A DNA stretch of 40,000 bases from an uncultured Eubacteriaceae bacterium (GCA_945867155.1 CAMBHL010000003.1:160099-200098), one strand, 5' to 3'; shown: positions 1 through 39,129, counted from the stretch's first letter. Made by a program: numbers and translations. The notes: generated by a model from the sequence alone, not told the origin.

Positions 1-374
1 ACCACGATGAACTTCGTCCAACCGTATGCCTTGTTCAGCTCGTACATGGTCTTGATGTAGGTATAGGTTTTTCCGACGCCGGTCTCCATCTCGATGGTCA
101 GGTTGTATTTGCCCTCGAGCGACTGTGACGGCTCGATCTGACCGTCACGCTGGATCTTCCGGATATGCTCAAGTATCTGTCCGTCGGACAGCTCCGGCAC
201 GATTTTGGCGTTCGCCCAGCCGGTGAAGTCATCCGCATCCATGATGATCTGATTTTGTTCGCTGCCTCTGTCTATCATGTAGGATGGCGTGAGGTACGGC
301 TGTCCGGCGAAAACGTCCACGACGGCCTTGGCGGCGTCAGCCTGAAACTTCTGGTGCTTGAATTGCAGTTTCAT
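1..374 (-). CDS. res: Type III restriction endonuclease Res subunit (SF2 helicase-nuclease). Only the N-terminal ~124 codons are present; the gene continues past the left edge of the window.
   Basis: Open frame absent from the ORF track because it has no stop in the window. ATG at 374-372 is preceded by GGAGGT (revcomp of 381-386), directly after the mod stop. My translation is [27 protein letters not shown]...[34 protein letters not shown]. The ETGVGKT helicase motif I and the N-terminus are typical of Type III Res proteins. Confidence 0.8.
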   Translation of the reverse strand, partial: [124 protein letters not shown]

Positions 375-386
375 TCTGCCACCTCC

Positions 387-2249
387 TTAAATAACCTTGA
401 CTCTTGTATCCGGCGCAAGCAGCTTGAAAATCTCGCCGACATTGATCTTTGCCGGACTGTTGGCGAAGCTGGAGTCGCGGAACACGGCACGCAACGGCTG
501 ACGTTTGGCAATGGTCTTGATAACTGACTCCGGCACGTTCTCATCAAAGCAAGCAATTAAATCGCCGTCATTGTAAGTGTGTACCGTGCAGCCTTCGATG
601 GTTTCAGAAGTGTACGGAAGCGACAGCGGAAGTCCCCATTCGAGCAGGCAGCCAAACAATAAATCCAAATCAGTACGGTCAGATTTAACGTTGGACTCCA
701 TCATCGTGAGCATGTCCTGCGTGTAATCTCCCGCGGCGTAATAGACATTATTCATGTTGGAGTCATCGATCTTTAGATCGCGGAAGCCGTCGTCAAACTT
801 TGCGTCAGGATTGTCCTCGTGAATCTTCTTTGCAGCGCGGCGGATGCGTTCCTTGCCGATTTCGCAGATGTTCTTGTAGCCGGCTTTGAATGCCTCGCTC
901 TTTTCGTCCGTCTCTTCCCGCAACTGCACCATGATGAACTTGCGGTGTCCACCGTCCTCGGCGTTCAGCTGCATGACGGCGTGGGCAGTCGTAGCGGAGC
1001 CAGAAAAGAAGTCGAGGATGATGTCATTTTTTTCTGTTGCATGGTAAACAAGGCGCCGTATCATTTCTACTGGCTTTACCGTATCAAATCCATTATTTGG
1101 CAAAAGTGTTTTGAGTTCGCTCTTTGCACTTTCCGCTGTTCCTATTTCTTTCGAAAAAAATCCCCAGAACGGCTGCGTCGATTCATTCCTTTCATATTCT
1201 GGACGCATTTTTATAATTGCTTTTCCATTTTCGATATACAAATCTCCTGCTTGCCTGTATTCGGCAACTTGGTCTTGACCAAGTTTCCACTGTTTCCCCG
1301 CAGGCGGAGAAACAGTGGAAACTCCATCCGTAATATCAAAAATCATGCTTTTCCGACCGCGAACGCCATTGGCATTCATGACCTCGATAGGATATTTGCG
1401 ATATACTCCTCTATCATCCTTTTCCGGATATTCTTTTTCTCCAAGTTGGATTAAATGAAACCTCCGCTTTTCTTGATTCGAGTATACAAGAATCATTTCT
1501 TCTTTCGGTTGGAGTTTATTGTAGGATGTTTTTGTATTTTGCGATTTTGTTTTCGACTCCCAATAAATTTCTCCTATAAAATGACTTTCACCAAATATCT
1601 CGTTGGCGATCGAACGCATATTAAAATTCTCGTTATAATCAATCGAAATAAAAATAACCCCATCCTCACTCAGCAAATTTCTCGCTAGCATCAGCCTTGA
1701 GTAAATCATCGAACACCAGTCAGAATGATATCGCCCTGCAGATGCCGAATTTTCGCGTTGATAATTTACATTCCCATCCTCATCAAAATACCCCGTTCCT
1801 TCGTTATAATCCTCATTGTCCATGATGAATGAATCTGGGTAAATAAAGTCGTGCCCCGTATTGTAGGGAGGATCTATGTATATCATCTTGACCTTGCCGA
1901 GATAGCTTTCCTGCAGGAGCTTCAGGACTTTGAGATTGTCTCCCTCAATATAAAGATTCTCGGTCGTATCCCAATTGACGCTGTCTTCCTTGCACGGGCG
2001 CAGGGTTTTGCGGATAGGACGGTTCGCCTCCACGATGGATGCTTTTTTGCCAACCCATGTAAACTCATAGGCCTCGTCACCGTCGATCACGCTGTCGGAC
2101 AGCATCTGCTTCAACAAATCGAAATTGATGGCTTTCTTCAAATGCCCGTTTTCATCCCGTGCCTCTGTGACGCAGTTTGGGAACAGCGCGGCGATCTTCT
2201 TGACGTTCTCCTGCTGGATGTCTTCGGATTCCATTCTCATTTTATCCAT
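387..2249 (-). CDS. mod: Type III R-M Mod subunit, beta-class N6-adenine (or N4-cytosine) DNA methyltransferase
   Basis: 620 aa ORF. Motif IV IYIDPPYNTG lies at aa ~123-132 and SAM motif I FFSGSATTAHAV at aa ~414, so motif IV precedes motif I (beta class). It sits immediately upstream of res. Confidence 0.85.
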   Translation of the reverse strand: MDKMRMESEDIQQENVKKIAALFPNCVTEARDENGHLKKAINFDLLKQMLSDSVIDGDEAYEFTWVGKKASIVEANRPIRKTLRPCKEDSVNWDTTENLYIEGDNLKVLKLLQESYLGKVKMIYIDPPYNTGHDFIYPDSFIMDNEDYNEGTGYFDEDGNVNYQRENSASAGRYHSDWCSMIYSRLMLARNLLSEDGVIFISIDYNENFNMRSIANEIFGESHFIGEIYWESKTKSQNTKTSYNKLQPKEEMILVYSNQEKRRFHLIQLGEKEYPEKDDRGVYRKYPIEVMNANGVRGRKSMIFDITDGVSTVSPPAGKQWKLGQDQVAEYRQAGDLYIENGKAIIKMRPEYERNESTQPFWGFFSKEIGTAESAKSELKTLLPNNGFDTVKPVEMIRRLVYHATEKNDIILDFFSGSATTAHAVMQLNAEDGGHRKFIMVQLREETDEKSEAFKAGYKNICEIGKERIRRAAKKIHEDNPDAKFDDGFRDLKIDDSNMNNVYYAAGDYTQDMLTMMESNVKSDRTDLDLLFGCLLEWGLPLSLPYTSETIEGCTVHTYNDGDLIACFDENVPESVIKTIAKRQPLRAVFRDSSFANSPAKINVGEIFKLLAPDTRVKVI

Positions 2250-2251
2250 TA

Positions 2252-3136
2252 TCAGTTTCCTCCTTGCAGTTGCTTTCTATAATCGCCAATTTGGTAGATG
2301 GCTGCTTTCAGAACTTGCAAACATATTAATGCTGTCTGCATATCTGGGGTAAATCTCGTAGCCAATTGAGAATAGGGATGAATATAATTCCTGAAATCTC
2401 GAACCACATGACTGAATTTCTTCACATCTTGTTTCAAGAATCCCAATTCAGCAGCAACATCAATGTAGTTACTAAGTGTCCATTCTTGAAATTTCTTCGT
2501 GCTTCCATCTTTGCTCTTAGGCGCACAGTTAGCTTGATTAAATAATCGCGGATATGAAGTAGCAACACCCAGTAATATTCCTTCCATAATGCCACCTATC
2601 ATAATTACAGACGATAGAGGTGCATTAGATGCCACACAGTTTTCTGCTTCTTTCAATCGCTCTTTTATTAGTTCATTTAATTCGGCTGAAAGGCCTATAC
2701 TTTCTATGTTGATATTAAATGTCTGACTTAAGAACTCATCAGTTGTTTCTATAGTCTGCTTTTTCGAAGAGTCCACGATTACCCGGTCATGCTTTTTAAA
2801 TGTTATTACATCGTTATTGCGAACAACCTCCCATTTATCAAAAGCAAGATACTGATTAAAATGTGCTATCTGTTTGTCGAGGTAATCAATCCGTTCTATG
2901 TAATCAATAACTGCAAATACCTTCTTAATACACTTATCAAGTTCTGGCGTCCCATTTATGGCAGCAAGTTTCTGATCTGTATAGACCCATCTTGAAGGAA
3001 ATCCTTGACCATACACATCATCAAATCCCAGATCATTGAAAAAGTCGACTAACTGCGGTCCACTTCGATAATCCCCAGTATTGTCACCATTTATTATTTT
3101 TCTAAGTTCCTCAAGCGTACGCTTGCTTAATTGCAT
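2252..3136 (-). CDS. Uncharacterised 294 aa protein, candidate HEPN-type (AbiJ-like) effector with an unknown N-terminal domain
   Basis: The C-terminal helical region holds VRDFRNYIHP (R246-x6-H253, nt 2378-2401), which fits the HEPN Rx4-6H spacing. The N-terminus (SGPQLVDFFNDLGF...PSRWVYT) resembles, from memory, N-terminal domains found on AbiJ-type proteins. The gene is visibly AT-rich compared with its neighbours. Confidence 0.45.
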   Translation of the reverse strand: MQLSKRTLEELRKIINGDNTGDYRSGPQLVDFFNDLGFDDVYGQGFPSRWVYTDQKLAAINGTPELDKCIKKVFAVIDYIERIDYLDKQIAHFNQYLAFDKWEVVRNNDVITFKKHDRVIVDSSKKQTIETTDEFLSQTFNINIESIGLSAELNELIKERLKEAENCVASNAPLSSVIMIGGIMEGILLGVATSYPRLFNQANCAPKSKDGSTKKFQEWTLSNYIDVAAELGFLKQDVKKFSHVVRDFRNYIHPYSQLATRFTPDMQTALICLQVLKAAIYQIGDYRKQLQGGN

Positions 3137-3792
3137 GTATCAAGTCCCTCCAGTTCTTTCCTGAGCTTCTTCAGCTCCGCGTTCATTTCCATCTGTCGGT
3201 TCAGCTGCTTTTCCTTGCGAATCTTTGCCTGCAGCTTACTTATTTGTTTTTGCAATTCGTCCCGGCGGTCATCCCTCGCTACGGATTCCTTCAGCGTTTC
3301 CTGCGGTGTCGATGTTTGCAGGGTATCGCCCGCAATCTGACGAACGAAGTTCTCATAAACAGCATCTATGTTCAGGCCGTCCAGATGTACTGGCAGTTCA
3401 TTTTCTAATACCCATCCGGTCTGGTAATATCGGTCAACCTTGAACGCGGCTTTACCGCTACCTGCGGCTTCCTTGTAACCGATCACTGCTTTGTATTTCC
3501 CGTCATATTCCAGTACAAACAAGATGTGGTACGGTATCTCACGGTCGATCTGCCTGAGCACATTCTCGTCAAGCGTGTCCTGGTTCAGGCGGACAAGCAA
3601 TACCTCAATCTCTGTGACGGCTTTCCCCTCCGCCAGATTGACAGTGGACGGCGCAATTTTGTTCGCCCAGTAGATAATCCGTATCTGGTCAACAAAGCTG
3701 CGCTTCAGAGCCGGGCTGATGGTCAGATTGTCATAAAACTTCTGTTTAGGGATCCGCTTGTTGAACTCCGTGGATTTCGGCAATCCCAGCAT
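3127..3792 (-). CDS. DUF4391-family protein with a C-terminal coiled-coil tail
   Basis: 221 aa. The N-terminus MLGLPKSTEFNKRIPKQKFYDNL...IRIIYWANKIAPSTVNL...REIPYHILFVLEYDGKY matches my recollection of the DUF4391 family. The last ~50 aa are K/E/Q/L-rich heptad-like sequence. Its stop overlaps the start of the downstream gene by 10 nt. Confidence 0.6.
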   Translation of the reverse strand: MLGLPKSTEFNKRIPKQKFYDNLTISPALKRSFVDQIRIIYWANKIAPSTVNLAEGKAVTEIEVLLVRLNQDTLDENVLRQIDREIPYHILFVLEYDGKYKAVIGYKEAAGSGKAAFKVDRYYQTGWVLENELPVHLDGLNIDAVYENFVRQIAGDTLQTSTPQETLKESVARDDRRDELQKQISKLQAKIRKEKQLNRQMEMNAELKKLRKELEGLDTCN

Positions 3793-3803
3793 ATGCTCCT
3801 CCT

Positions 3804-6800
3804 TTACATTACCACGAGGAAGGTCACCAGTTCAAAGTCATCGATGCCTTTTACCTCCGAAAGCAAGGCAGATGTGCCGCCGCTCTTGAAGAGGCTGTCG
3901 ATGTCGCTTTCCTCCTTGGTATCTATGATTGAATTGATGGCATCGGACAGCAGCGCTGACATTTCACTCATGTTCCTGCCATCATCGGTTTTTTTATTAA
4001 AACGGTCGCAGACCTCCACAATCGGTTCAGCTTTTCCACGGCACAGAAGCCTCATATCATCAAGCAGCTTCTTCGGATTCAGATAGTCGCAGACGATTTC
4101 ACCTTCCAGACTGATATAGACCATATAGAACGGATGAATGCGATTCAGACTGTCAATGTTCACACCATTGTTGCGATTCTTCAGTACGAAAAGCACTCCT
4201 TCTGGCAGGTCTTCCGTCTTCTTCACCACGGAATGCAGACCGAATGGCATGTGGTCGAGATCCGGATGCGTTTTGATGTATTCGAGAAGATCAAGTCTAA
4301 ATTCATTAAGACCGAGATCCATGATGGATATCCCGCCTGACATGTCTTCCAGATCCACCACTTCGGTCTGCAACTTCTTAAGCTGTTCGCGGCGATATTC
4401 CAGGTCTCCTTTTTCTTCCGGGCTGATCGGATTGTCGTCACCGGTAGATGTCAGAACGGAAATTTTCATCCTCGTTTCCACACGGGCTTTCAGATTAATG
4501 TACTCGTCAAGCGTCAAATCCGGCCAGAAGTTCACGAGCTGGATCTGCTTGTTCCTGCTGCCAATTCGATCTATACGTCCAAACCGCTGGATAATACGCA
4601 CTGGATTCCAGTGAATGTCGTAGTTGACGCAGTAGTCGCAGTCCTGCAGGTTCTGGCCTTCGGAGATGCAGTCGGTTGCGATCAAGATATCGATGTCCTT
4701 CTTGCTCCCCGGCATAAGGACGTCTCGATCCTTGGAAACCGGCGAGAAGCATGTGAGGATGTTGTTGAACGTCGCCTTGAAGTTCTTCAGCGTGGTTCTG
4801 CCGTCGACCGTGCCACTGATCATACCGGTATTTAGGCCGTACTTTTCCATAACATACCGGCTGACATTGTCGTACAGATACTCCGCTGTATCAGAGAATG
4901 CTGTGAAAATCAGCACCTTCCTGTTGCCAGGGTTGATCGGATTCTCAATCTTCTGTGAGATGAGCTTGTAGAGCTCCTGCAGCTTCGTGTCATGTTCCGG
5001 CGTAATATCCGCAATCATGAGAATCAGAAGTTCGAGCGTATCCGCATCCTTTTGCAGCACGTCCTTCCAGCTCTTGTAATCCATATCGACAAGGTCAATC
5101 TTCACTTTACGTCCGACAGTGAAGTAGTCGGTGTTCTGGTCCTCCATGTCGAAATCGTCGGAATCAGCTTCATACATGTCGATGTTGGCTTTTCCATATT
5201 TCTCGTACTGAGTGATTCCCTCGATTGTCTCCATAATGAATTTGCGGATGCGTTCCAGTGTAAGCCGGAAGGATGAGACCGAGCTTTCCAGCCGCTTGAG
5301 GAGATTGACACTCATCAGCCTGCGGATACCTTCTTCACGTCCAGACTGCGTCAGATTGTTTCCCTTGTGATGTGTCAGATCAATATATTTCTGCATCTTG
5401 CTCGGGAAGATATAGGCAGAAGGCGTGTAAATCTCCAGCTGAAGCTGAGAAAGCTGTTCATATATTTCGTTGTAGTTAATGGCGCTCGGAAGATCCGTCA
5501 GGCTCGGCCTAAGTGAGATTGGTTTGCGCCGTTCCGGGAACTTGCCGATCTTCTCCGTGTTGTAGTATTTCTCGATATGTTTTCGTGACCGTGCAATGGT
5601 TACAGAGTCGAGCACTTCAAAGAAATCAAAATCCAGTCGGCGCAGCAGGTTATCCGTTGTCCGTTCCTCAGCTGGGAGCTTGCTCCAAGCGTTGAATGCG
5701 GTCTGGGCCTGGCGGAATATCTCGTCGATCGACTTTGACGTATTCAACTTCTCATCAATCAACTCCGGCGTTCCTTCATATGCTAGAGCAAGTTGATTCT
5801 TGAGGTCGTTAAAGCGGTTATTGACAGGAGTTGCTGACAGCATGAGTACTTTCGTCTTCACTCCAGCGCGTACAACTTTATTCAGAAGTTTTAGATAGCG
5901 GTTTTCCTTCTGGTCCTCACCGGAAAGTTCTCCGCCGTTTCGGAAGTTATGCGACTCGTCAATAACCACAAGATCATAGTTTCCCCAGTTGAGCCGGTCG
6001 AGATCAAGCCCGTTTGATGTGCCATGGTCACGAGAAAGATCCGTATGGAAAAGGACATCGTATCGCAGCCTGTCAGCGGCAATCGGATTGTTGACGTAGT
6101 TGTCCTTGTAGGTATTCCAGTTCTCCGCCAGCTTCTTCGGGCAGAGAACAAGCACGGACTTGTTTCTGTTCTCATAGTATTTGATGACAGCGAGAGCCGT
6201 GAACGTCTTTCCAAGACCGACGCTGTCAGCGAGGATGCAGCCGTTGTACTTCTCTAGCTTGTTGATTATGGCGAGCGCAGCATCCTTCTGGAAATCGTAA
6301 AGCATATCCCAGATTTTGCTGTTCTTAAAACCGGTTGCTTCGTTCGGCAGCACGTCCTCAGAGACGTCCTCCAGAAATTCACTGAATACGTTATAAAGCG
6401 TAATGAAGTAGATCAGCTCCGGCGAATTTTCATTATAAGCAGTCGTAATGTTTTCCAAAACAACATCAGTGACGTCCTGCAGCTTTTCTTTATCGTTCCA
6501 AAGAGAATCGAAGACCTGCAAGTACTGCGCCGCGAATGGAGTCTCGAGGCTGTTCACCATATTGTAGCTATTGTTGCCACGTTCGCATCCAATATCTACC
6601 GTCGTGAATCCGTTCAAAGGCATGTAAGCTATTTTTTCAGTTCCAGAGTCGGTAACCATAAATCCGGCCATGTTCTCGCCAGTTGTATTTGATTTAAATG
6701 TGGCCTTTCTCCTGATCCAGTCGGCGCACTCTTTTGCGATTGCCTTCTGCGTCATTTCATTACGCAGCTTAATTTCAAATTCCGTGCCGTAAAGACTCTG

Positions 6801-7037
6801 CTCACGAGTAAGCCGAGGAATATAAAACTCGCGCTTCTGCTTTTTCGATTTCTCTGTTACAAAGGTCGGCGATGTGAAGATGAAGCGGAACTCATCAATG
6901 CTTTCGAGCTGCTTTTTCAATTCACTATAGGCATACATAGAAAAGCAAGCCGCTGCCACGGAAACCTTGCTATTCCGCTTTATCGTTTTTTCCATGTCAT
7001 CTCGAACGATGTTCGTGACATTATCAAATACCTTCAT
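3804..7037 (-). CDS. SNF2-family (SF2) helicase/translocase, ~1077 aa, with unassigned N- and C-terminal extensions
   Basis: Motif I is ADSVGLGKTFTALAV, motif II DLVVIDESHNFRN, motif III MLSATPVNN, and the helicase-C block is ATDCISEGQNLQDCDYCVNYDIHWNPVRIIQRFGRIDRIGS. The start is placed at ATG 7037 (MKVFDN..., upstream GGAAGGCGAG). The track ORF extends to a GTG at 7148, but those 37 extra codons look like a relic (see findings). Confidence 0.85.
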   Translation of the reverse strand: MKVFDNVTNIVRDDMEKTIKRNSKVSVAAACFSMYAYSELKKQLESIDEFRFIFTSPTFVTEKSKKQKREFYIPRLTREQSLYGTEFEIKLRNEMTQKAIAKECADWIRRKATFKSNTTGENMAGFMVTDSGTEKIAYMPLNGFTTVDIGCERGNNSYNMVNSLETPFAAQYLQVFDSLWNDKEKLQDVTDVVLENITTAYNENSPELIYFITLYNVFSEFLEDVSEDVLPNEATGFKNSKIWDMLYDFQKDAALAIINKLEKYNGCILADSVGLGKTFTALAVIKYYENRNKSVLVLCPKKLAENWNTYKDNYVNNPIAADRLRYDVLFHTDLSRDHGTSNGLDLDRLNWGNYDLVVIDESHNFRNGGELSGEDQKENRYLKLLNKVVRAGVKTKVLMLSATPVNNRFNDLKNQLALAYEGTPELIDEKLNTSKSIDEIFRQAQTAFNAWSKLPAEERTTDNLLRRLDFDFFEVLDSVTIARSRKHIEKYYNTEKIGKFPERRKPISLRPSLTDLPSAINYNEIYEQLSQLQLEIYTPSAYIFPSKMQKYIDLTHHKGNNLTQSGREEGIRRLMSVNLLKRLESSVSSFRLTLERIRKFIMETIEGITQYEKYGKANIDMYEADSDDFDMEDQNTDYFTVGRKVKIDLVDMDYKSWKDVLQKDADTLELLILMIADITPEHDTKLQELYKLISQKIENPINPGNRKVLIFTAFSDTAEYLYDNVSRYVMEKYGLNTGMISGTVDGRTTLKNFKATFNNILTCFSPVSKDRDVLMPGSKKDIDILIATDCISEGQNLQDCDYCVNYDIHWNPVRIIQRFGRIDRIGSRNKQIQLVNFWPDLTLDEYINLKARVETRMKISVLTSTGDDNPISPEEKGDLEYRREQLKKLQTEVVDLEDMSGGISIMDLGLNEFRLDLLEYIKTHPDLDHMPFGLHSVVKKTEDLPEGVLFVLKNRNNGVNIDSLNRIHPFYMVYISLEGEIVCDYLNPKKLLDDMRLLCRGKAEPIVEVCDRFNKKTDDGRNMSEMSALLSDAINSIIDTKEESDIDSLFKSGGTSALLSEVKGIDDFELVTFLVVM

Positions 7038-7135
7038 TAACTTTTCTCGCCTTCCATATGTAATCTCTTTATCATATACGACCTGTTGATGAAAGTAAGC
7101 ATTATGCGTCAGGATAAAGATCTGTTCAATGTACC

Positions 7136-7185
7136 AATCACGAGTCACAACCTATCAAATATCTAATCACGAGTCTCAACCCTAT
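7136..7185. repeat. Imperfect 20/21-bp direct repeat with a 29-bp period at the island border
   Basis: Copy one is aatcacgagtcacaacctat at 7136-7155. Copy two is aatcacgagtctcaaccctat at 7165-7185, with 1 mismatch and 1 extra base. The first copy overlaps the GTG at 7148. Confidence 0.7.
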
Positions 7186-7295
7186 AAAACAGCTCGATCG
7201 ATAAGTTCCCCCAGAGGGTTTTTTCTTAATTGAACCATCCTTTTGCAAAAAGTCAGGTGTGCAGGAATGGCTTAAAATAAGGCTTTTCTCACTCC

Positions 7296-8675
7296 TTAGT
7301 CCCTGACCCTTGACATCAATGCTACCGTCTCAACATGCCCAGTCCCCGGAAACATATTAACCGGTGTTGCTTCAATCAGTTCATATCCGGCTTTTTTCAA
7401 AATCCCCACATCCCGGGCCAATGTTGCAGGATCACAGGAAACGTACACGATTTTGGGGATACGGCAGGCGATCAAACTGTCGAGCAAGGTTCGCGCACAA
7501 CCCTTTCTCGGCGGATCAACGACAGCGACGTCGGCGCGGCTGCCCTGCCTGATCTGTTCGGGCATCACGTCCTCTGCCTTGCCGCAGATAAAGGAAATAT
7601 TTTGAATGTGGTTGCGCTTCGCATTTTTGCGTGCATCTTCGACGGCTTCTGGAACGATTTCAACGCCAAGCACCCGTTCGGCGTCCTTAGCCATGCAAAT
7701 ACCGATGGTACCAGTCCCACAGTACAAATCCCAGAGGGTTTCTGTCCCCGTCAAAGCTGCATACCTTTTTGCCTTTTCATAAAGCTTTTCTGCCTGAATG
7801 GTATTAACCTGGAAAAAAGACTGGGGTGAAATGTTAAAGGTGTAGCCGCACAATCTTTCTTCGATAAACGCTTCGCCGGCTAAAAGCTCCGTCTTCGTTC
7901 CCAAAACGCGATTGTTGGGCTTGGTGTGGATATTGAGCATAAGGCTCTTCAATTGTGGCAGGCCTTCAAAAATTTGCACAGTCTGTCTTTTCTGCTCGGA
8001 TGATAAATCGTGACTGACAACCGGCACCACCATCACGTCGCCTTGGCGGTTCGTTCGGAGCAGAAAACCGCGCACATCCCCTCGCCGGCTTTTTTCATCG
8101 TAAGGTGTGAGCTTAAGTGCCGCCATCCATTTCCGACACACCGCCAAGACCGGTCCCAAAGGCCGCTTTTGATTCAGACAGTCGCCAATGGGTACCACTG
8201 CATGACTGCCCTTTTGAAAAAAGCCAATTCCCGCATCTGACACTTTGAGCTGCGCTTTATTGCGATAGCGGATTGGCTGCTCCATCCCGATTGTCGACCG
8301 AACTTTCTCAGCCGCATCTGTCAACCCACCAATATGTTTAAATGCGTTGATCACCGTCTGTCGTTTGAGCTCATTTTCGCAGGACGCTGTCAAATGCAGC
8401 CATTGACAGCCACCGCATTTTGGAAAAGCTGGACAATCCGGCGTCTTTCGGTTCTTTGAGTCCGCAAGGATCTGACTCATTTTGCCTTTCAGATATTGCT
8501 GTTTGACCGCCGTCAATTCAACCTCAACGGTCTCGCCAACAACCGCCCCATCGACAAAAAGGGCCTGCCCCTGAACGTGGCCGACCCCTTCTCCCCGCCG
8601 CGTCATGTCGGAAATGGTCACCTCAAGGTGATCGCCGACGCGGTGAGGGTTTATTGGTTTGTGCTTTTTTTTCAT
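7296..8675 (-). CDS. rlmD: 23S rRNA (uracil-5-)-methyltransferase, RumA/RlmD family
   Basis: 459 aa. It has an N-terminal TRAM-like barrel, a Cys cluster (CPAFPKCGGCQW) for 4Fe-4S, the SAM motif DLYCGTGTIG and the catalytic VDPPRKG...VSCDPATLARD. Confidence 0.85.
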   Translation of the reverse strand: MKKKHKPINPHRVGDHLEVTISDMTRRGEGVGHVQGQALFVDGAVVGETVEVELTAVKQQYLKGKMSQILADSKNRKTPDCPAFPKCGGCQWLHLTASCENELKRQTVINAFKHIGGLTDAAEKVRSTIGMEQPIRYRNKAQLKVSDAGIGFFQKGSHAVVPIGDCLNQKRPLGPVLAVCRKWMAALKLTPYDEKSRRGDVRGFLLRTNRQGDVMVVPVVSHDLSSEQKRQTVQIFEGLPQLKSLMLNIHTKPNNRVLGTKTELLAGEAFIEERLCGYTFNISPQSFFQVNTIQAEKLYEKAKRYAALTGTETLWDLYCGTGTIGICMAKDAERVLGVEIVPEAVEDARKNAKRNHIQNISFICGKAEDVMPEQIRQGSRADVAVVDPPRKGCARTLLDSLIACRIPKIVYVSCDPATLARDVGILKKAGYELIEATPVNMFPGTGHVETVALMSRVRD

Positions 8676-27939: not shown

Positions 27940-29027
27940 TTATGCCCTTTGCTTATCTTTTTTGATAAGTGGATACTGACGGTACATGAAAAACGACCGA
28001 ATCACTGGAATATGCGGGATCACTGCAATAGCTATAACTGCCAGAACGACGCGGCAAAGAATTAAACCTGTAGTATAAAACTTCATGCTGCTGATTTTAA
28101 GTGCTCCGCAAAGCTTGTCCATAACGCGAAACGTCTTTAATGTATTTAAGTCAAGAATATGGGTGCACAAAACAATGAGTGAGAGTTCTCCTAATTTTGA
28201 GAACCATTTTGTAAATTCTTTAAAACATTTTTCAAGCCAAAGGCTCACATAGCAAATCGCATAGCACCCGGCCACACTGCCAATAACCGCAATCGCTGGA
28301 TTGTCTGCTGTCGCCGTATTCAGCCAAAACGTACTGATTCTAGCAGAAAGCCCCCAGACGATAAGGGCAAAAGCAACGTGAAACCACTTTCCTTTTTGAA
28401 TCAATTTATGGCGGTGCATCCATTCGCCAGTCCAGTAAAAAAACATGCTGACCAAGGCGGCTGGGATGGACCAGGGCAAATACAGATTAAATTTTTCGGT
28501 TAAGACAAACCCTAGAGCGCAAAAACCTGCAAAAAGCACCGTACAAGCCAAATCTGAAAAATGGTACCGATCTGTTAAATTCCTCAATCCCGTGTACAGT
28601 AAGTTCGCCACAAACATACACGGCAGAAACCAAATGGCGCCTATCGCCATAATATTCACCTGTGTCTTCCCGATAACCGTTGTTGCTGTACCAATACCGT
28701 AACAAGCCGCGATTACGCCTTGACGAAAGGTTGGAAAATAAGGCTGCAAAAATGATTCGGTCTTTTTACCGCAATCATCGAAAAGATGATCATCAAAACA
28801 CTGGTAATGATGTAGGGCAGTAAAAGATTATCAAACCCACCTGAAATGACTTTTTGGATCGGTTTCTGCCGGTGCAGATAGCCTGACAAAAAGAAAAAAA
28901 TTGAAACATTTACGATATAAATTGCATAAAAAATTGTTCGTCCGAAAGTCACGTCAATGGTATGACCCGTGATGATCAATAAAATGCCTATAACTCTGGC
29001 ATCGTCAATCCATTTTACCCGCTCCAT
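27940..29027 (-). pseudogene. Acyltransferase-3 family membrane O-acyltransferase, split by a frameshift into two overlapping ORFs
   Basis: The N-terminal ORF (28713-29027/29096) has the family start RVKWIDDARVIGILLIITGH. The second ORF (27940-28749) continues with ...GAIWFLPCMFVANLLY... in another frame. The frames overlap at 28713-28749, next to A5/T5 runs. Confidence 0.6.
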
Positions 29028-29054
29028 AAACATCCTTTCACTGGAATTTCCGCA

Positions 29055-29091
29055 AAAAGCCCTCTTGCAAACAATTTGCAAAAGGGCTTTT
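29055..29091 (-). terminator. Terminator hairpin downstream of the ChW lysozyme gene
   Basis: An imperfect 17-bp stem pairs AAAAGCCCTCTTGCAAA (29055-29071) with TTTGCAAAAGGGCTTTT (29075-29091). T-runs flank it on both strands. Confidence 0.65.
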
Positions 29092-29119
29092 TTCATTTGA
29101 TACTTAATTTATTTTTTAG

Positions 29120-31741
29120 TTAAAAATTCGAATACGTTTTATTCATATCAATACCGCCGGAAAGTCCAGGCACGCTTCCGGTGTCGCTGTACTGCCAGAT
29201 ATCGATGTGATTGTTATAGGATGGTTTCGAAGAGCTGTTCCAGAAATACGGATACTGCGCGTACCAGATCTTGTAGTTTTTAATCATGCTGTAATCCAGA
29301 TGATTGTTTAGCCAGTTCTGATTGGCGTAGATCATCGGCGTATAACCAGCTTTTTTCACTTCTTCGCAGAAAGCGATGGCATTCTTCGACTGCTGGGTTT
29401 TGCTCAGATACGCAATCTTGCTGTCTTCCAAGTCGATGCAGATCGGCATTTTAAGGCTCCGGCCGTTAAGCAGGCTGATCGCATAATCCGCTTCCTGGCG
29501 GGCTTCGTTTTCATCATCCGCGTAGCTGTAGACGTAAACGCCAAAAGGCATGCCTGCGGCTGTCGCATTGGTGTAGTTATTGTTGAACTGCTTGTCCATC
29601 GCGCCGTTGCCCGCATGGCCCCAGGCGATGCGCAGCATCGCAAAGGAGTAGCCCGCGTTTTTCGCTTTGCGCCAGTTGTCAGCACTGATGTAGCCCTGCC
29701 ATTCGGAAACGTCGACCCCTAAACCGTTGGTCTTGACTACACTATTGTTAATTTTGATATACGCGTTACTTGTATCCCCTGGCGCCGATGCGTTTTTAGG
29801 CAAGACACAAACCTGAACGGCTTCCACGCGAAGACCACCATTGGAAGTTCCAGCCCAGTCTCCATCCTTCGCCCAACCGAGCCAACCGTAATTCTGAACG
29901 TGGACACGGTACCAGACACTCATGGATGAAGCAGCCGAACCGTTAAGCTTCAACTGAACCGCTTCCAAACGTTTATTTTCTCCTGTAGTTCCGGAAAATT
30001 TATCTGTATCTTTACTACTGATCCAATCTTGAGAGCTTCCAATATCCTGAATATATGAATGATAAGAAATATTAGAATCTCCTAAAACCTGATCTGAGAA
30101 TTTCACCTGAAGAGCTTCAACTCTCAGAGCCTGTCCTGTTGTACCAGAAGTCTGTCCTGCGGATGTCCAATCCATCCAGCCTTTATTCTGAACGTGGGTT
30201 CTGTATGACACCGTATAAGCTTTGGTCAAATTGTCTTGGGTAAGTTCTGCTGTTGAGATACTTCCGAGGGCATTTGGTGCCGCATCGCCTTTGGGCACCA
30301 GTTTAATAGCGATGGCTTCAGCTCTTAAACCGAGGCCTTCTGACCCAGCCGACTCGCCGTTTTTCGCCCAGCCAAGCCAGCCGTAGTTCTGAACATGAAC
30401 GGCATAATAGATATCATATTGTTCGCTGAGGGAATCATTCAATTTAATTTGAACCGCTTCAAGGCGTCTAGCTTGCCCCGTTGTGCCGGCAGTCTGGTTA
30501 TTGTTGACCCAGTTTTGCCAGCCTGTACCTTGAAGATGAGCACGATACGTAATACTTGTAGCTGTATTATTTAAATTGTCCGCCGTGAAATTAATTTTTA
30601 AAGCTTCAAGACGAAGGGATTTTCCCGTTTCGCCGGCCACAGCCCCGTCCTGAACCGTTTTCGTCCAGCCGGTATTCTGCTGATGGACACTGTATTGAAC
30701 GTGGGGATTCGAAACGTCCGACGCCGTATAAACGTGTTTGAATGCACTGCCCAAAGGCTGAGGTGCTGTCGCCCCTTTGTTCACGATGATGACTTCGACC
30801 CCTTCGATCCGTTTTGAAAGGCCGACAGAACCACAGGTTTCCCCGTTTTTCGCCCAATTGACCCAGCCGTAATCCTGGACATAGGCGCAGTAGTAAATAT
30901 CGTATTTACTGGCGTCTGTTCCTGTCAAGTTAATTTTAAAGGCTTCAAGCCGCAGGCTCTGACCGATCGTCCCAGCGAGTTCTCCATTGCTTTTAGCGCT
31001 TTGCCAGCCGATATTTTGAACATGAGCGGAATACGAGACACCGAGGGTCGACGTATCCTGACCTGTTTTAATCGAAAGGCCTTCCAGCCGCAGGTCCTGA
31101 CCGATGGTGCCGGCCACCTGACCGCCGCTTACCGCATTGAGGGTGCCTTTATTTTGAACATGAGCCTGCACTTTTAATGACGTATTTACGTCACTGCTGT
31201 AATTTTGAGGTGTTCCGATACTGATGGTAAATTTCTGCCCTGCCGTATTATTCTGCTGGTACAGCTGGACATTGGTGCCATCCGTCGTGATATTGCCGCC
31301 GGCTACATCCATAACCTTTGTACTCGAGCAGGCTGGCTGCAGGGTGTAGGTTCCGTCCGATTCCAAATTTAGCGTCCATTTTTGGGCATCCGAATCATTT
31401 TCGTCGTACACTTGAATATTGGTGCCGTTTTTGTCGCTGGCGCCATTGACGTCCAGTGCTTTCTGTGCCCCCTTGTTTAATATTTTGTACTGGCCGTTTC
31501 CGATTGGAATAAATTCCCAGTATTGATCCTGACTATACTGATTTTTTTCAAGAATAATCACGTTGTTAACATTTCTTGAAACTGCCTTGTCTCCCACCAA
31601 AATCTGAGCCGTAAAACTATCCTGAGGCAAATCTGCCGCTTTCACTGTTCCTGTTGCAAACAGCATTGCAAACAAGAAAATGCTCAAAAAAGAAAAAAGA
31701 CCTATTATCGAACTGTACGCTATGCGTTTTATTCCGCTCAT
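29120..31741 (-). CDS. Secreted or anchored cell-wall hydrolase: signal/anchor, Ricin-type beta-trefoil lectin, 9 ChW repeats, GH25 lysozyme
   Basis: The start is set at ATG 31741 (AAAGGATGG RBS). Q-x-W-like trefoil motifs are QYWEF, QKWTL and QKFTI. Nine repeats follow the pattern Y.aHVQn.GW....G..aGT.G...RLEA. The C-terminal GVDVSEWQG...DIWQYS is typical of GH25. Confidence 0.8.
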   Translation of the reverse strand: MSGIKRIAYSSIIGLFSFLSIFLFAMLFATGTVKAADLPQDSFTAQILVGDKAVSRNVNNVIILEKNQYSQDQYWEFIPIGNGQYKILNKGAQKALDVNGASDKNGTNIQVYDENDSDAQKWTLNLESDGTYTLQPACSSTKVMDVAGGNITTDGTNVQLYQQNNTAGQKFTISIGTPQNYSSDVNTSLKVQAHVQNKGTLNAVSGGQVAGTIGQDLRLEGLSIKTGQDTSTLGVSYSAHVQNIGWQSAKSNGELAGTIGQSLRLEAFKINLTGTDASKYDIYYCAYVQDYGWVNWAKNGETCGSVGLSKRIEGVEVIIVNKGATAPQPLGSAFKHVYTASDVSNPHVQYSVHQQNTGWTKTVQDGAVAGETGKSLRLEALKINFTADNLNNTATSITYRAHLQGTGWQNWVNNNQTAGTTGQARRLEAVQIKLNDSLSEQYDIYYAVHVQNYGWLGWAKNGESAGSEGLGLRAEAIAIKLVPKGDAAPNALGSISTAELTQDNLTKAYTVSYRTHVQNKGWMDWTSAGQTSGTTGQALRVEALQVKFSDQVLGDSNISYHSYIQDIGSSQDWISSKDTDKFSGTTGENKRLEAVQLKLNGSAASSMSVWYRVHVQNYGWLGWAKDGDWAGTSNGGLRVEAVQVCVLPKNASAPGDTSNAYIKINNSVVKTNGLGVDVSEWQGYISADNWRKAKNAGYSFAMLRIAWGHAGNGAMDKQFNNNYTNATAAGMPFGVYVYSYADDENEARQEADYAISLLNGRSLKMPICIDLEDSKIAYLSKTQQSKNAIAFCEEVKKAGYTPMIYANQNWLNNHLDYSMIKNYKIWYAQYPYFWNSSSKPSYNNHIDIWQYSDTGSVPGLSGGIDMNKTYSNF
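29804..31180 (-). repeat. Nine tandem ChW (clostridial hydrophobic, conserved Trp) repeat modules within the CDS
   Basis: The repeat cores are VQAHVQNKG, YSAHVQNIGW, YCAYVQDYGW, YSVHQQNTGW, YRAHLQGTGW, YAVHVQNYGW, YRTHVQNKGW, YHSYIQDIGSSQDW and YRVHVQNYGW. They are divergent at the DNA level. Confidence 0.8.
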
Positions 31742-31836
31742 GTAACCATCCTTTCGAAAAAAATCATTCACTTTTAATTATAACGAAAATTTTAGGATAG
31801 TAAAGCTCCTTTCCAATTTCTTAAACCTTTTTATTC

Positions 31837-31865
31837 TTGAAATATAAAGTGAGCATGTGTAAAAT
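31837..31865 (+). promoter_or_regulatory. Candidate sigma-A promoter for gtrA
   Basis: TTGAAA (31837-31842) and TAAAAT (31860-31865) are separated by a 17-nt spacer. Confidence 0.45.
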
Positions 31866-31889
31866 AAAAACATTATCAAGGAGTTATTT

Positions 31890-32324
31890 ATGAAAAAGAA
31901 TATTAAAACCCTTTATTTAAACCATAAAGAAATTGTCAATTACCTGATCGTCGGCGTTCTTACGACTCTTATCAGCCTGGCCGTTTATTATTTTTGTGTT
32001 TCCACTTTCTTGAATCCCAGAAATGCCTTTCAGCTTCAGGCAGCCAACGTCATCTCCTGGATTATTTCTGTTCTTTTTGCTTACTTCACCAATCGTAAGT
32101 ACGTTTTTGAAAGCAAAAATCCCCATATCCTCAAAGAAGCCTCTGCCTTTTTCTTAGCCAGAGTCAGCACACTTCTGATGGATATGGGAATCATGTTTTT
32201 ATGTGTAACTTTAATGGGCATGAACGATAAAATTGCCAAGCTCATTTCTCAAGTCGTCGTTATCGTAAGCAATTATGTTTTCAGTAAATTGTTCGTCTTT
32301 AAAAAAGGACAGACAAAACATTAA
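31890..32324 (+). CDS. GtrA-family membrane protein (polyprenol-linked sugar translocation)
   Basis: 144 aa with 4 TM segments. The family pattern is present: YLIVGVLTTLISL...ISWIISVLFAYFTNRKYVF...VVIVSNYVFSKLFVF. The RBS is AAGGAG. Confidence 0.75.
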   Translation: MKKNIKTLYLNHKEIVNYLIVGVLTTLISLAVYYFCVSTFLNPRNAFQLQAANVISWIISVLFAYFTNRKYVFESKNPHILKEASAFFLARVSTLLMDMGIMFLCVTLMGMNDKIAKLISQVVVIVSNYVFSKLFVFKKGQTKH

Positions 32325-32357
32325 TAAATTCTTCCTTATTATTTTTTTTACTAATTT

Positions 32358-33419
32358 TTAAAATAAATCAAAGGATCTTTGTTGGTCTGGTTTTTTAATT
32401 CGAAAAATACGGCATAATACTCTTGACTGCAAAGACAAAACGGTTCCTGATGTAGCCCAAACAATTTTTAAAAATACAACAAAATAATTTTGAACTCTTG
32501 TTTTGAATATAGGCGTATATTTAACTACTTTCCACCACACCGGCCAGATATAGCATTGTTCAAGCGAATGAAAACACAAAAAAACCAGCGAATAGCGTCC
32601 GAAAAAATCCAACAATGCTGAAAATGGATTCCTTATATGCCGTGCACAATGTGTCGCAATATAAATAATTAAATAACTTCCAGCACAACTTCCTATTATT
32701 GTAGGAAGAAGATCAGCATAGAAAGTCCCACCCATATCAAGTGTCATAACAAAAAGTGTATTTTTCCTTGAAAGGAACCAGATAAATAATGCCAGCACTG
32801 CTTTTTGCCAATTCATTTCGTCCAGCCAATGATGCTTTTTGCACAAAAAACCAATATGAAGAAATAAAGTTGCACATAAAGCAGGTTGCAAACTGAGCGG
32901 AAAAACACCCAGATGGTGATGTGACCAAATACCAAAACAAAAGGCAGCAAGAACGAAGGAAGTGGTAAACGCTTCTTTTTGACTAAATAATAAATAAAAC
33001 AGCTCCGAAAAGAAAAGCGCGAGCAAAAACCATAGCGGTCCAACCCCCACCATTTTATTAATGTCTTGAGAATACCCCAGCATGATCCGTATGAAACTAT
33101 CTCTCAAAGACAAAGATACTGGGTAACTCCGATAATAAATCTGTTTGATGAGCATCATAAGAGCTAATAAAATAGAAGTAAACCAATAAGGAATAATTAA
33201 AGATTTAATTCTCTTTTTGATAAAATCATCAATTTTTCTCTTTTTAAAAAAATATCCACTAATCATAAAAAATAATGGCATATGGAAACTGTAAATGATT
33301 GGCTGCAGATGTTTCATTTCACCGACATGTCCAATCACAACCAGCAAAATTCCGATTCCCTTTGCAATATCTAAACGAATATCTCTTTGTTTACTCTGTC
33401 TTATTTTAGTTAATTCCAT
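32358..33419 (-). CDS. Acyltransferase-3 family membrane O-acyltransferase
   Basis: The protein is polytopic. The N-terminus RDIRLDIAKGIGILLVVIGHV and FHMPLFFMISGYF are family hallmarks. The gene is strongly AT-rich. Confidence 0.75.
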   Translation of the reverse strand: MELTKIRQSKQRDIRLDIAKGIGILLVVIGHVGEMKHLQPIIYSFHMPLFFMISGYFFKKRKIDDFIKKRIKSLIIPYWFTSILLALMMLIKQIYYRSYPVSLSLRDSFIRIMLGYSQDINKMVGVGPLWFLLALFFSELFYLLFSQKEAFTTSFVLAAFCFGIWSHHHLGVFPLSLQPALCATLFLHIGFLCKKHHWLDEMNWQKAVLALFIWFLSRKNTLFVMTLDMGGTFYADLLPTIIGSCAGSYLIIYIATHCARHIRNPFSALLDFFGRYSLVFLCFHSLEQCYIWPVWWKVVKYTPIFKTRVQNYFVVFLKIVWATSGTVLSLQSRVLCRIFRIKKPDQQRSFDLF

Positions 33420-34563
33420 TTCTTTTTAACGCCTTTTGATAAAACGCCTCTAACTGCTTAATATTAAATTTCATATCATAACCATTTTCCTGAATAGCTT
33501 CAATCGGCGTCCTACGGTCATTTTTATCTTTCATCATAGTAACTGCTGCATTTACCCAATGATCGAGATCATTTTCCTCTATGCCCAGGAATTGAACATT
33601 TCCAGAAATATCTGCCTGACGGCTGACTTGATCCGAAACCAAACACTTCAAACCCGCCGCCTGTGCCTCAATCAAAGAAACAGGCAGGCCTTCAAAATGA
33701 GAAGGCATAAAAAAGACATCCATCGCCTGCAGAAGCTGAGGCACATCGGAACGCTTGCCTAAAAACAGCACACTGTCTTCCAATTTTAACTGACGCACCA
33801 ACTCCTGCATTTTTTCAAAATATTCCCCAATGCCAATGAGCATTAATTTGGTGTTGGCATTTTTTTGGTGCAGACGTTCAAAAGCATGAATGAGAAAGAC
33901 GTGATTTTTCTGATAGTCAAACCGTCCCACATGTCCCACGACGAATTGATCTTCAAGATGATATTCAGTCCTTAGCTTTTGCCGCACCTCCGGATTATAC
34001 TGATATTTTTCAACATCGATAGCATTTTTGAAAGTAAAATATTCCGGCGTACGGCACAGCTTTTTGCCGAAGAGCCATTCTCCCGCTTCTTCAGAACACC
34101 CGATATAATGGGTCGCCACGCGACGAATCTGCTTTCTTTCTTTTTCTAAATAAAGATAATGCAATAAATCTTTAAGGCCATGAATTTCCAGCTGATGCCA
34201 GGTATTGTGGCTGTGAGCCACCCGAACCGGCACGCCGTACTTTTTGGCAATCTTTAAGACCTCAGCTCCCAAAGCATTCATATGCGTATGGACAATATCG
34301 TAATGATGAGACTTAAAAAAAACTTCCAGTGATTTTCTACTCTGAAACAATCCACTTTTAAGTGGTGTATAATAATAAATACTCGCTCCCTTTTTTCTTA
34401 AATATCTTGAAGCTTCTGTTTTATCTTCATTTTGTGTATCATGCATAAGTAAAAAATCAATATGAAACCTTTCCTGATCAATATTGTCAAAAATATTAAG
34501 CATAACACTTTCTGTCCCACCTTTTATTAATAGCTGATTAAATACAAATAATATTTTGACCAT
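33406..34563 (-). CDS. GT4-family (GT-B) glycosyltransferase
   Basis: It carries the C-terminal EX7E-type motif MPSHFEGLPVSLIEAQAAGLKCLVSD. Confidence 0.8.
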   Translation of the reverse strand: MVKILFVFNQLLIKGGTESVMLNIFDNIDQERFHIDFLLMHDTQNEDKTEASRYLRKKGASIYYYTPLKSGLFQSRKSLEVFFKSHHYDIVHTHMNALGAEVLKIAKKYGVPVRVAHSHNTWHQLEIHGLKDLLHYLYLEKERKQIRRVATHYIGCSEEAGEWLFGKKLCRTPEYFTFKNAIDVEKYQYNPEVRQKLRTEYHLEDQFVVGHVGRFDYQKNHVFLIHAFERLHQKNANTKLMLIGIGEYFEKMQELVRQLKLEDSVLFLGKRSDVPQLLQAMDVFFMPSHFEGLPVSLIEAQAAGLKCLVSDQVSRQADISGNVQFLGIEENDLDHWVNAAVTMMKDKNDRRTPIEAIQENGYDMKFNIKQLEAFYQKALKRNGIN

Positions 34564-34605
34564 ATTGCTCCTTTTTCATAATTAAGAAGATGATAATTAA
34601 CAATC

Positions 34606-35514: not shown

Positions 35515-35541
35515 AATTTATTTTTATAGAATTTTTATCCA

Positions 35542-36150
35542 TTAAAACTTAAACGTATCCTTGATCCCCATCCATTTCTGGTCTTTGTCGGACAAATTGA
35601 GAGGTGTGCCGTCGCTCAAGATGTAACCGTCTGCGCTGCAGCTACCCTGGTATTCGCCGACCACCTGGGGCCATTCGATGCCGATTTCCGGATCGTTCCA
35701 AGCCATGCCGCCTTCATCGTTGGGATGCCAGAAATCATTAACTTTGTAGCAGAATTCTGCGACATCTGACAGCACAAGGAAACCATGGGCGAAGCCTTCG
35801 GGAATCAAGAACTGCTTTTTATTTTCTTCGGTCAGTTCAACCCCATACCATTTGCCGTAAGTCTTCGAATCTGCACGCAGATCGACGGCCACGTCAAAAA
35901 CGTCGCCGCGAATGGCGCGCACCAGTTTGCACTGAGGGTAATGTTTTTGAAAATGCAGTCCCCGGAGCACGCCCTTGGTTGACATCGACTGGTTGTCCTG
36001 CACAAAGTCGATATCAAATCCGGCTTCTTTCATGTCATTCTGATTGTAAGTTTCCATAAAATAACCCCGTTCATCGCCGTGAACGGCGGGTTCTATAATG
36101 CACAGGCCTTCAATGCCGCCGACGTTTTTTTCAACTTTAATCTGTCCCAT
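35542..36150 (-). CDS. rfbC: dTDP-4-dehydrorhamnose 3,5-epimerase
   Basis: GDERGYFMETYN, RGLHFQ and IPEGFAHGFLVLSD are RmlC signatures. Confidence 0.9.
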   Translation of the reverse strand: MGQIKVEKNVGGIEGLCIIEPAVHGDERGYFMETYNQNDMKEAGFDIDFVQDNQSMSTKGVLRGLHFQKHYPQCKLVRAIRGDVFDVAVDLRADSKTYGKWYGVELTEENKKQFLIPEGFAHGFLVLSDVAEFCYKVNDFWHPNDEGGMAWNDPEIGIEWPQVVGEYQGSCSADGYILSDGTPLNLSDKDQKWMGIKDTFKF

Positions 36151-36171
36151 TTTGCGCTCCTTTTTCTATTT

Positions 36172-37128: not shown

Positions 37129-37139
37129 CGTTTCCTCTT

Positions 37140-39120: not shown

Positions 39121-39129
39121 GCTTTCTCC

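Follow-up and report, generated by a model that had tools for sequence, protein, structure and literature searches.

Within a 40,000-nucleotide stretch of DNA from an uncultured Eubacteriaceae bacterium (GCA_945867155.1 CAMBHL010000003.1:160099-200098; the whole stretch is referred to as the window), a Type III restriction-modification (R-M) island contains an AT-rich gene, here termed gene X, whose 294-amino acid product couples an N-terminal domain of the AbiJ type, via a linker, to a HEPN domain that is a divergent relative of DUF4145. We give a somewhat better than even chance to the reading that gene X encodes an autonomous, single-polypeptide, phage-triggered abortive-infection RNase that is carried as cargo by the island; its RNase activity, toxicity, trigger and role in defence are what we infer, whereas the existence of the gene, its domain homologies, the HEPN-type fold, the invariant residues, the operon context and the cargo behaviour are shown by the analysis. 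Gene X is an unannotated addition to a known arrangement, i.e., a HEPN gene of the abortive-infection (Abi) type within an R-M operon, and not a new category, given that a catalogue of such HEPN genes has existed since 2013 (PMC3710099). The parts of the gene are as follows.

2252..3136, minus strand: gene X, an open reading frame (ORF) with ATG start encoding 294 amino acids
2771..3136, minus strand: N-terminal domain (residues 1-122), mostly helical with a terminal beta-hairpin; AlphaFold2 (AF2) predicted local distance difference test (pLDDT) values of 91-97 over residues 1-110
2687..2770, minus strand: linker (residues ~123-150), poorly conserved and of low confidence; pLDDT 48-55 for residues 121-140
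2267..2686, minus strand: C-terminal domain of predicted HEPN type (residues ~151-290); AF2 model of the domain alone with pLDDT 96.0 and a predicted template modelling score (pTM) of 0.90
2582..2584, minus strand: codon of E185, an invariant acidic residue of helix 2 (GSxLEGxLL; helix 173-194)
2378..2401, minus strand: motif RDFRNYIH (R246 to H253), as read from the translation

The C-terminal domain and its predicted HEPN fold

The C-terminal domain was modelled alone by AF2 from a diverse alignment. The model predicts a four-helix up-down bundle (151-169, 173-194, 236-250 and 266-290) with an insert (196-231) between helices 2 and 3. When the domain model was compared with the PDB using Foldseek, all of the top 13 matches were HEPN-fold proteins (7ae6/7ae8, 1ufb, 1jog, 7bxo, 6m6u/w and 2hsb), the best being TT1696 (1ufb) with template modelling (TM) scores of 0.57/0.68 and a probability of 1.00. 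HEPN proteins ranked first for the full-length as well as for the domain model, among them the HEPN toxins 7ae6/7ae8, 5yep and 7bxo, and further matches with this fold included AF0298, the HEPN domain of sacsin, YutE and MtlR. At the sequence level, the domain points to DUF4145 (PF13643), a HEPN family (clan CL0291) for which an association with R-M operons and fusions to AbiJ-NTD1 have been reported (PMC3710099). The E-value for this family is 0.005 with the whole protein and 0.001 with the C-terminal domain alone. DUF4145 is matched at E<=0.1 by 24 of 42 diverse relatives (best 8e-5) while no second family recurs, and a precomputed PF13643 match exists for three of the 120 closest homologues. 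Judged by the model, the C-terminal domain has a HEPN-type fold, just as the preliminary description of this DNA had proposed.

That description had also singled out an arginine and a histidine with the spacing R246-x6-H253, inside the Rx4-6H range of HEPN motifs, and a nearer R249 with a non-canonical x3 spacing; both spacings are present, and R246 is followed by an aspartate. In the model, R246, R249, N250 and H253 occupy the position expected for the HEPN motif as defined in PMC3710099. The string VRDFRNYIHPY is invariant among close homologues. Conservation reaches 100% for R249, N250, H253 and E185 and 96% for R246 in 122 diverse C-terminal domains, which are representatives clustered at 50% identity. 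In HEPN domains, helix 2 often contributes a conserved acidic residue adjacent to the motif (PMC3710099). For RAZR, a DUF4145 protein, RNase activity that is triggered by phage and depends on its arginine and histidine has been proven (PMC13017515). The HEPN domain of gene X is probably an RNase.

Several points weigh against this assignment. The Foldseek E-values are weak (0.07-1). With 17.2 bits for the full-length sequence and 19.6 bits for the isolated domain, the DUF4145 scores stay under the gathering threshold of 23.1 bits, and by this measure the domain should therefore be regarded as a divergent relative of DUF4145 rather than as a clean member. PADLOC, NCBIfam and PHROGs offer no defence annotation for it. 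The invariant R249-N250 pair yields Rx3H, which is shorter than Rx4-6H, and the sole arginine at x6 is the 96%-conserved R246. When the profile of the C-terminal domain was aligned by hhalign with a single Abi_C domain and with a single HEPN-like neighbour, the probabilities were 0.5% and 5%, respectively, both values stemming from single-sequence comparisons. In the latter alignment, RDFRN falls on RKIRN of the string RKIRN-EFAH in the neighbour; this register suggests, with low confidence, that the motif of gene X is an RxxRNxxxH signature contracted by one residue.

Taken at face value, the x3 spacing of the invariant RN..H outside Rx4-6H and the moderate profile and fold scores would fit a non-catalytic HEPN-like protein that binds RNA, a nucleotide or a protein and has a regulatory or adaptor function in the island; catalysis is indeed absent from some HEPN families, MtlR and the nucleotidyltransferase-associated ones among them (PMC3710099). 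However, a catalytic site would be expected to show just the invariance that R249, N250, H253 and E185 display in representatives clustered at 50% identity, the spacing R246-x6-H253 lies within the canonical range, and RAZR is active as an RNase with an implied x7 spacing (R146, H154). In addition, the genes that occupy the same position in related islands (see below) are effectors and not regulators. We consider a non-catalytic role improbable.

An AbiJ-type N-terminal domain shared with other effectors

The N-terminal string SGPQLVDFFNDLGFDDVYGQGFPSRWVYT, noted earlier as resembling the sensor-type N-terminal domains of AbiJ-class proteins, was confirmed in the translation of gene X. A tblastn search with residues 1-124 against plasmids retrieved 'abortive infection family proteins' on Acinetobacter plasmids and on one cyanobacterial plasmid. 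The N-terminal domain of gene X is 36% identical to the N-terminus of WP_087528902.1 from an Acinetobacter plasmid (pairwise E 2e-22) and 33% identical to that of WP_015186316.1 (E 3e-14). Both proteins match Abi_C (E 3.5e-22 and 2e-17, respectively) and the PADLOC AbiJ model (E 8e-31 and 4.5e-23), and their alignment with gene X is confined to the N-terminal domain. The signature YRSGPxLVxFFNxLGFxDxYGQGFPSR is common to gene X and the AbiJ-type N-terminal domains. On these sequence grounds, we assign the N-terminal domain of gene X to the AbiJ class. The earlier comparison of this region with AbiJ-class N-terminal domains is thus borne out. Neither Abi_C nor the PADLOC AbiJ model matches gene X.

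Residues 5-119 of gene X furthermore match positions 3-128 of the 500-position PADLOC model for Stk2 (E 1.8e-14), a model whose N-terminus is matched by the Acinetobacter AbiJ-type protein in the same way, and the domain also matches PHROGs 14300 and 4972 (E ~1e-10). It matches none of the Pfam families AbiJ NTD3, NTD4 and NTD5, and a tblastn search against 50,697 phage records gave no match. When the N-terminal domain of the Acinetobacter protein was used in a word-indexed homologue search, 22 matches were obtained, most of them fragments. AbiJ-NTD1 was described in 2013 with partners including DUF4145 (PMC3710099). The partner set seen here, i.e., AbiJ, DUF4145 and a kinase, fits this published description, and the domain may correspond to AbiJ-NTD1, an assignment that draws on the partners. 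The domain is presumed to act as a sensor or autoinhibitory module. The linker that follows is variable and gapped in the alignment of close homologues.

The C-terminal domain, for its part, follows at least 25 unrelated N-terminal regions in relatives of gene X, one of which consists of TPR repeats. Since the N-terminal domain is shared with Abi_C/AbiJ proteins and with the Stk2 model while the C-terminal domain stands behind these many other regions, gene X appears to join a sensor or regulator module to an effector module, each of which has been shuffled independently. An AbiJ protein bearing the N-terminal domain resides on a 5.6-kb Acinetobacter plasmid with seven annotated features, where its gene adjoins the rep gene and no R-M genes are present.

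The gene X family

Gene X is a real and widely conserved gene. A collection clustered at 90% contains 3452 homologues at E<=1e-3; the 120 closest are full-length, 63-93% identical and derived from very different phyla. An exhaustive profile search yielded 2730 representatives at 50% clustering, and in a pattern scan with one genome per species 490 stretches were found to encode gene X relatives. Despite its size and its spread over many phyla, the family goes unrecognised by current annotation: the protein has no name in any source checked, NCBIfam provides no model that matches it, its Pfam score is sub-threshold and the PADLOC AbiJ model does not apply. Sequence searches of the PDB with the whole protein, the C-terminal domain profile and the N-terminal domain profile gave nothing significant (best matches: DUF3826, E 1.1; FAM118B, E 0.035; an intron endonuclease, E 0.2), and Foldseek comparison of the gene X model with the viral structures in BFVD returned noise only.

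Some copies deviate in length. At loci L022:9400-9885, L029:8695-9195, L033 and L048, ORFs called from the first ATG give short copies of 111-201 amino acids comprising mostly the C-terminal domain. For L022 and L029, tblastn matches nonetheless cover nearly the whole gene X protein, indicating frameshifts, decay or alternative starts. The first ~130 residues of another protein, P0139 (281 amino acids), which came from the search for representatives, correspond to the N-terminal region of a SNF2 helicase and its last ~146 residues to the HEPN domain of gene X; this chimera is either a deletion that fused both genes or an assembly artefact.

Gene X within a Type III restriction island

In the window, the genes are arranged in the order SNF2-DUF4391-X-Mod-Res, all on the minus strand and with overlapping or abutting reading frames.

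3804..7148, minus strand: SNF2-family helicase at the head of the island, N-terminal region HKD/PLD-like; PADLOC C3a139 'HKD+Snf2', E 1e-121
3127..3792, minus strand: DUF4391 gene, 221 amino acids, full-length, directly upstream of gene X; Pfam PF14335, E 2e-63
3147..3151, minus strand: Shine-Dalgarno sequence GGAGG of gene X, within the 3' end of the DUF4391 gene and 10 nucleotides upstream of the ATG
2259..2263, minus strand: Shine-Dalgarno sequence GGAGG of mod, identical with the last Gly-Gly codons of gene X and 9 nucleotides upstream of the mod ATG
387..2249, minus strand: Type III R-M methyltransferase Mod, 620 amino acids; PADLOC MTase_III, E 1.3e-210; Pfam N6_N4_Mtase, E 6e-37
1..374, minus strand: 5' part of Type III res, cut by the window edge; ATG at 374-372, product beginning MKLQFKHQKFQADAAKAV... 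with a Walker A motif

As reported before, the 5' end of gene X shares 10 nucleotides with the DUF4391 gene, the two frames overlapping, and 2 nucleotides lie between its TGA and the ATG of mod; neither flank of gene X offers any intergenic space. Promoter-like or terminator-like sites were not found in or near gene X on the coding strand, the nearest terminator-like sites being located at 3881-3867 (in the SNF2 3' end) and 1609-1588 (in mod). Because the Shine-Dalgarno sequences reside inside the preceding genes and such sites are lacking in and near gene X, the gene can be predicted to be co-transcribed and translationally coupled with its neighbours. The start of res in the window aligns with the N-terminus of 1014-amino acid ResIII/RE_endonuc proteins from related loci, and the DUF4391 gene is the backbone partner of the SNF2 gene, which also matches Pfam SNF2-rel_dom and Helicase_C. 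Note that the SNF2 ORF as listed begins with GTG and encodes 1114 amino acids, compared with 1072-1078 in homologues. Its first ~37 codons (7037-7148) weakly match the C-terminal part of AAA_13 and contain a promoter-like site (7129-7101). Translation probably begins at the ATG at 7037 instead, and the 5' extension may be a remnant of another gene.

The preliminary description had called gene X compositionally distinct, and this was borne out. The 60-nucleotide samples on which the statement was based contain 38.3% GC (2401-2460, gene X) and 55.0% GC (421-480, mod), and the GC content of the whole gene is 37.5% compared with 45.7% for mod, 49.5% for the DUF4391 gene and 47.1% for the SNF2 gene. 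At third codon positions, the GC fraction is 0.32 for gene X and 0.54, 0.62 and 0.60, respectively, for the three neighbours. The AT-richness of gene X is reached by 7.9% of all 885-nucleotide intervals across the 40 kb. The contrast exists with the backbone genes and not with the whole of mod, the centre of which (1317-1688, residues ~187-311) has a GC fraction as low as that of gene X (0.34-0.39, with ~0.48-0.53 at the mod ends). This centre is probably an exchanged target-recognition domain, because it is AT-rich and falls into a stretch that does not align with the N6_N4_Mtase profile.

Following a suggestion made with the first description, SNF2-DUF4391-Mod-Res loci were compared with regard to variable insertions. 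The census was anchored on DUF4391 and not on gene X, and comprised 68 complete loci. The slot between the DUF4391 gene and mod is filled by gene X alone in 19 of them, empty in 11 and occupied by other genes in the remaining 38. These other genes belong to at least 25 families, including TIR, ThsB-TIR plus a membrane protein, Schlafen AlbA_2 with a restriction endonuclease-like domain, a trypsin-like peptidase, DUF4365 and AbiJ_NTD4/PDC-S32. Backbones whose DUF4391 protein is 83-89% identical to that of the window carry different cargo in the slot, and in nearly every locus examined the cargo genes, gene X included, lie 5-14 GC points under the backbone. This pattern marks gene X as a horizontally exchanged cargo cassette, one of many interchangeable defence-effector genes of the slot, and explains its AT-richness. 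In DUF4391-anchored metagenome islands (L099-L178) and in loci L019-L031, at least three junctions take low-GC cargo, namely SNF2/DUF4391, DUF4391/Mod (TIR, Schlafen, protease, DUF4365 and AbiJ_NTD4 genes) and Mod/Res (RhuM, Fic/Bro-N and other small genes). Some SNF2-DUF4391-Mod-Res loci possess two tandem mod genes, and in some islands (L012:15432-17252, L140) a GmrSD-type (DUF262) Type IV restriction gene follows res, pointing to further defence stacking.

The closest relatives of gene X (>=58% identity) reside in the SNF2-DUF4391-X-Mod-Res frame in 12 of 13 genome loci. Among them are genes from Dialister (90%), Lachnospiraceae, Ruminococcus, Angelakisella, Flexilinea and Lentisphaeraceae, and RhuM, Fic or other genes are frequently inserted between mod and res in these loci. 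A Limisphaerales copy has RhuM as the only gene next to it and is not flanked by R-M genes. The more divergent copies are preceded by Res-Mod, Type IIG (Eco57I/MmeI-like) or Type ISP enzymes, while others are found among defence genes (ApeA-HEPN, OLD-like ATPases, a reverse transcriptase, a MORC-like ATPase). R-M genes were counted around those 50 genome copies of the family that are flanked by 3 kb or more on each side, the counts being lower bounds. An R-M gene is directly adjacent to gene X in at least 11 and present within 5 kb in at least 24 of these loci; in 26, none was recognised within 5 kb. The earlier statement that a suicide effector is hard-wired into an R-M operon is thus overstated, because gene X is exchangeable cargo and about half of its loci lack a recognised R-M gene within 5 kb.

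Against the autonomy of gene X stands its tight and recurrent position next to a methyltransferase-bearing gene, be it Type III Mod on either side, Type IIG or Type ISP, and this juxtaposition could reflect functional coupling rather than mere co-location. In this case, gene X might be a guard resembling PrrC, i.e., it would bind Mod/Res or SNF2-DUF4391, remain silenced and fire as an RNase when a phage anti-restriction factor perturbs the complex. The conserved gene order around the nearest relatives is in line with such a guard, as is the coupling of gene X to mod in the window. Elsewhere it overlaps or abuts mod on either side (Res-Mod-X in L049, L059 and L092) and in some loci it begins 0-4 nucleotides after Type IIG enzymes. 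There is also precedent in PrrC-EcoprrI, and a logic of this kind was proposed for 16 HEPN clades in the 2013 survey (PMC3710099). On the other hand, the 26 loci without a recognised R-M gene nearby argue against an obligate dependence, islands with the same backbone often have nothing in the slot or carry unrelated effectors there that are equipped with sensor domains of their own, the N-terminal domain is paired with other effectors on tiny R-M-free plasmids, and gene X does not possess the ABC-ATPase regulatory module of PrrC. The recurrent juxtaposition with methyltransferase-bearing genes leaves some room for a PrrC-like dependence, which we judge unlikely. Autonomy of gene X is supported by the AbiJ protein with the same N-terminal domain on an R-M-free plasmid, by the finding that no more than 24 of the 50 loci show a recognisable R-M gene within 5 kb and by the Limisphaerales copy without R-M neighbours.

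The interchangeable slot also lends itself to a broader proposal. The SNF2-DUF4391-Mod-Res backbone would be a modular sensor-effector platform that signals to whichever effector fills the DUF4391-mod slot; it could detect foreign DNA or an anti-restriction attack, with the shared AbiJ-type N-terminal domain as the receiver. Type III R-M would then have an equivalent to the ancillary effectors known from CRISPR type III or from cyclic-oligonucleotide-based anti-phage signalling systems (CBASS). We regard the proposal as a long shot.

Low GC content, patchy distribution and ~65% identity across phyla show gene X to be clearly mobile. These properties, together with the fact that HEPN proteins are common toxins of toxin-antitoxin modules (PMC3710099), would also be expected of an addiction toxin that stabilises the mobile R-M island by post-segregational killing and has no anti-phage role. 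However, no conserved antitoxin partner was found, the neighbours vary between contexts, and an R-M system is itself already an addiction module. An RNA antitoxin of the kind known from Type III toxin-antitoxin systems was rejected, since region 1-8000 of the window contains no relevant tandem repeats and no match to Rfam, including upstream of gene X. A conserved 112-amino acid ORF without Pfam family begins -3 to +7 nucleotides from the gene X stop in seven of 79 genome loci (L087:9856-10194 and the same position in L039, L043, L086, L090, L093 and L095, where gene X is ~52-56% identical). In those lineages, the ORF may be a specific partner of gene X. The window does not contain it, and a dedicated protein antitoxin at this locus was rejected on that account. 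Given the invariant residues and the lack of a conserved antitoxin or RNA repeat, the non-catalytic and the addiction role are both less likely, and we hold the latter to be the least probable of the explanations discussed.

Outside the island, a second low-GC region of the window (27940-39999, minimum 0.31 near 34300) represents a surface-polysaccharide cluster unrelated to gene X, with dTDP-rhamnose genes, glycosyltransferases and acyltransferases. It is adjoined by a gene for an 883-amino acid ChW-repeat/GH25/ricin-lectin protein. The housekeeping neighbour RlmD groups with Pseudoramibacter sequences.

Proposed mode of action

If gene X is an autonomous abortive-infection RNase, the AbiJ-class N-terminal domain would sense a phage component and/or keep the enzyme inactive. 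Once released, the HEPN domain would dimerise and cut RNA (tRNA, rRNA or mRNA) without a metal, and translation in the infected cell would come to a halt. The cell would thereby gain a backup suicide or dormancy response at the RNA level in addition to DNA restriction. Because gene X sits inside an R-M island, such a layered defence would arise by co-expression, and the pairing would be one of co-location and not of mechanistic dependence on the R-M enzymes. This corresponds to the 'multi-pronged' logic put forward in 2013 for 16 HEPN clades (PMC3710099), of which PrrC is the experimental example. As HepS (PMC13043305) and RAZR (PMC13017515) demonstrate, sensing of phage proteins and killing can be united in one HEPN protein.

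Should gene X indeed encode an active, phage-triggered RNase, a widespread single-gene abortive-infection effector would be added to the catalogue. With this protein, nature also provides a way to test if cleavage can still be catalysed by a contracted RNxxH motif. Type III islands of the SNF2-DUF4391-Mod-Res type carry rotating suicide-type effectors at two fixed junctions, which makes them a practical hunting ground for new effectors and a place to study if R-M and Abi genes that lie together also act together or are just inherited together.

Comparison with known systems

AbiJ from Lactococcus lactis (Abi_C, PF14355) resembles gene X in combining an N-terminal 'AbiJ-NTD' with a C-terminal HEPN domain in a protein of ~280-295 amino acids. 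In contrast to the AbiJ family, gene X does not match Abi_C at E<=1 or the PADLOC AbiJ model. Its HEPN domain appears to be DUF4145-like and not of the Abi_C type, and by this comparison it is best described as AbiJ-like rather than as a member of the AbiJ family. The motifs differ as well, with RDFRNYIH in gene X and RNKMSDAH (Rx6H) in the Acinetobacter AbiJ-type protein. AbiJ-type genes, too, can be part of R-M operons, as in hsdS-Abi-hsdR on Allocoleopsis pMIC7113.05. The mechanism of AbiJ itself is not established (PMC13064643). The family closest to the C-terminal domain is DUF4145, its best and sole recurrent Pfam match. Stk2 shares the N-terminal module alone with gene X, its effector being a Ser/Thr kinase and not a HEPN domain, and the AbiF/AbiV-like HEPN systems of Type III toxin-antitoxin modules differ from gene X by an adjacent RNA repeat array.

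PrrC of the EcoprrI Type Ic locus is likewise encoded by a HEPN gene inside an R-M operon and was proposed as a second defence at the RNA level (PMC3710099). It carries an ABC-ATPase N-terminal domain, is masked by the Type I enzyme and responds to T4 Stp as its trigger. Gene X, by comparison, has an AbiJ-type N-terminal domain, resides in a Type III island and belongs to a family that frequently occurs without R-M genes; an ATPase domain was not detected in it with any of the libraries scanned (Pfam, PADLOC, NCBIfam and PHROGs).

In the case of RAZR (PD-T7-4), phage proteins activate an abortive-infection RNase that consists of a single protein (PMC13017515). Its N-terminal domain is a zinc finger whereas that of gene X is of the AbiJ-NTD type, and the arginine-histidine spacing, taken for RAZR from the residue numbers, is x7 compared with x6 (R246) or x3 (R249) in gene X. 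R246 and H253 may correspond to R146 and H154 of RAZR. RAZR is activated by ring assembly, which should not be assumed for gene X. A functional model for an autonomous HEPN effector is provided by HepS, a HEPN solo defence protein of Gifsy-1 that combines the sensing of a structural protein of the phage with the activity of an anticodon nuclease in abortive infection (PMC13043305). HepS differs in its canonical Rx4H motif, its single-domain tetramer and its location on a prophage, and its likeness to gene X would be one of function.

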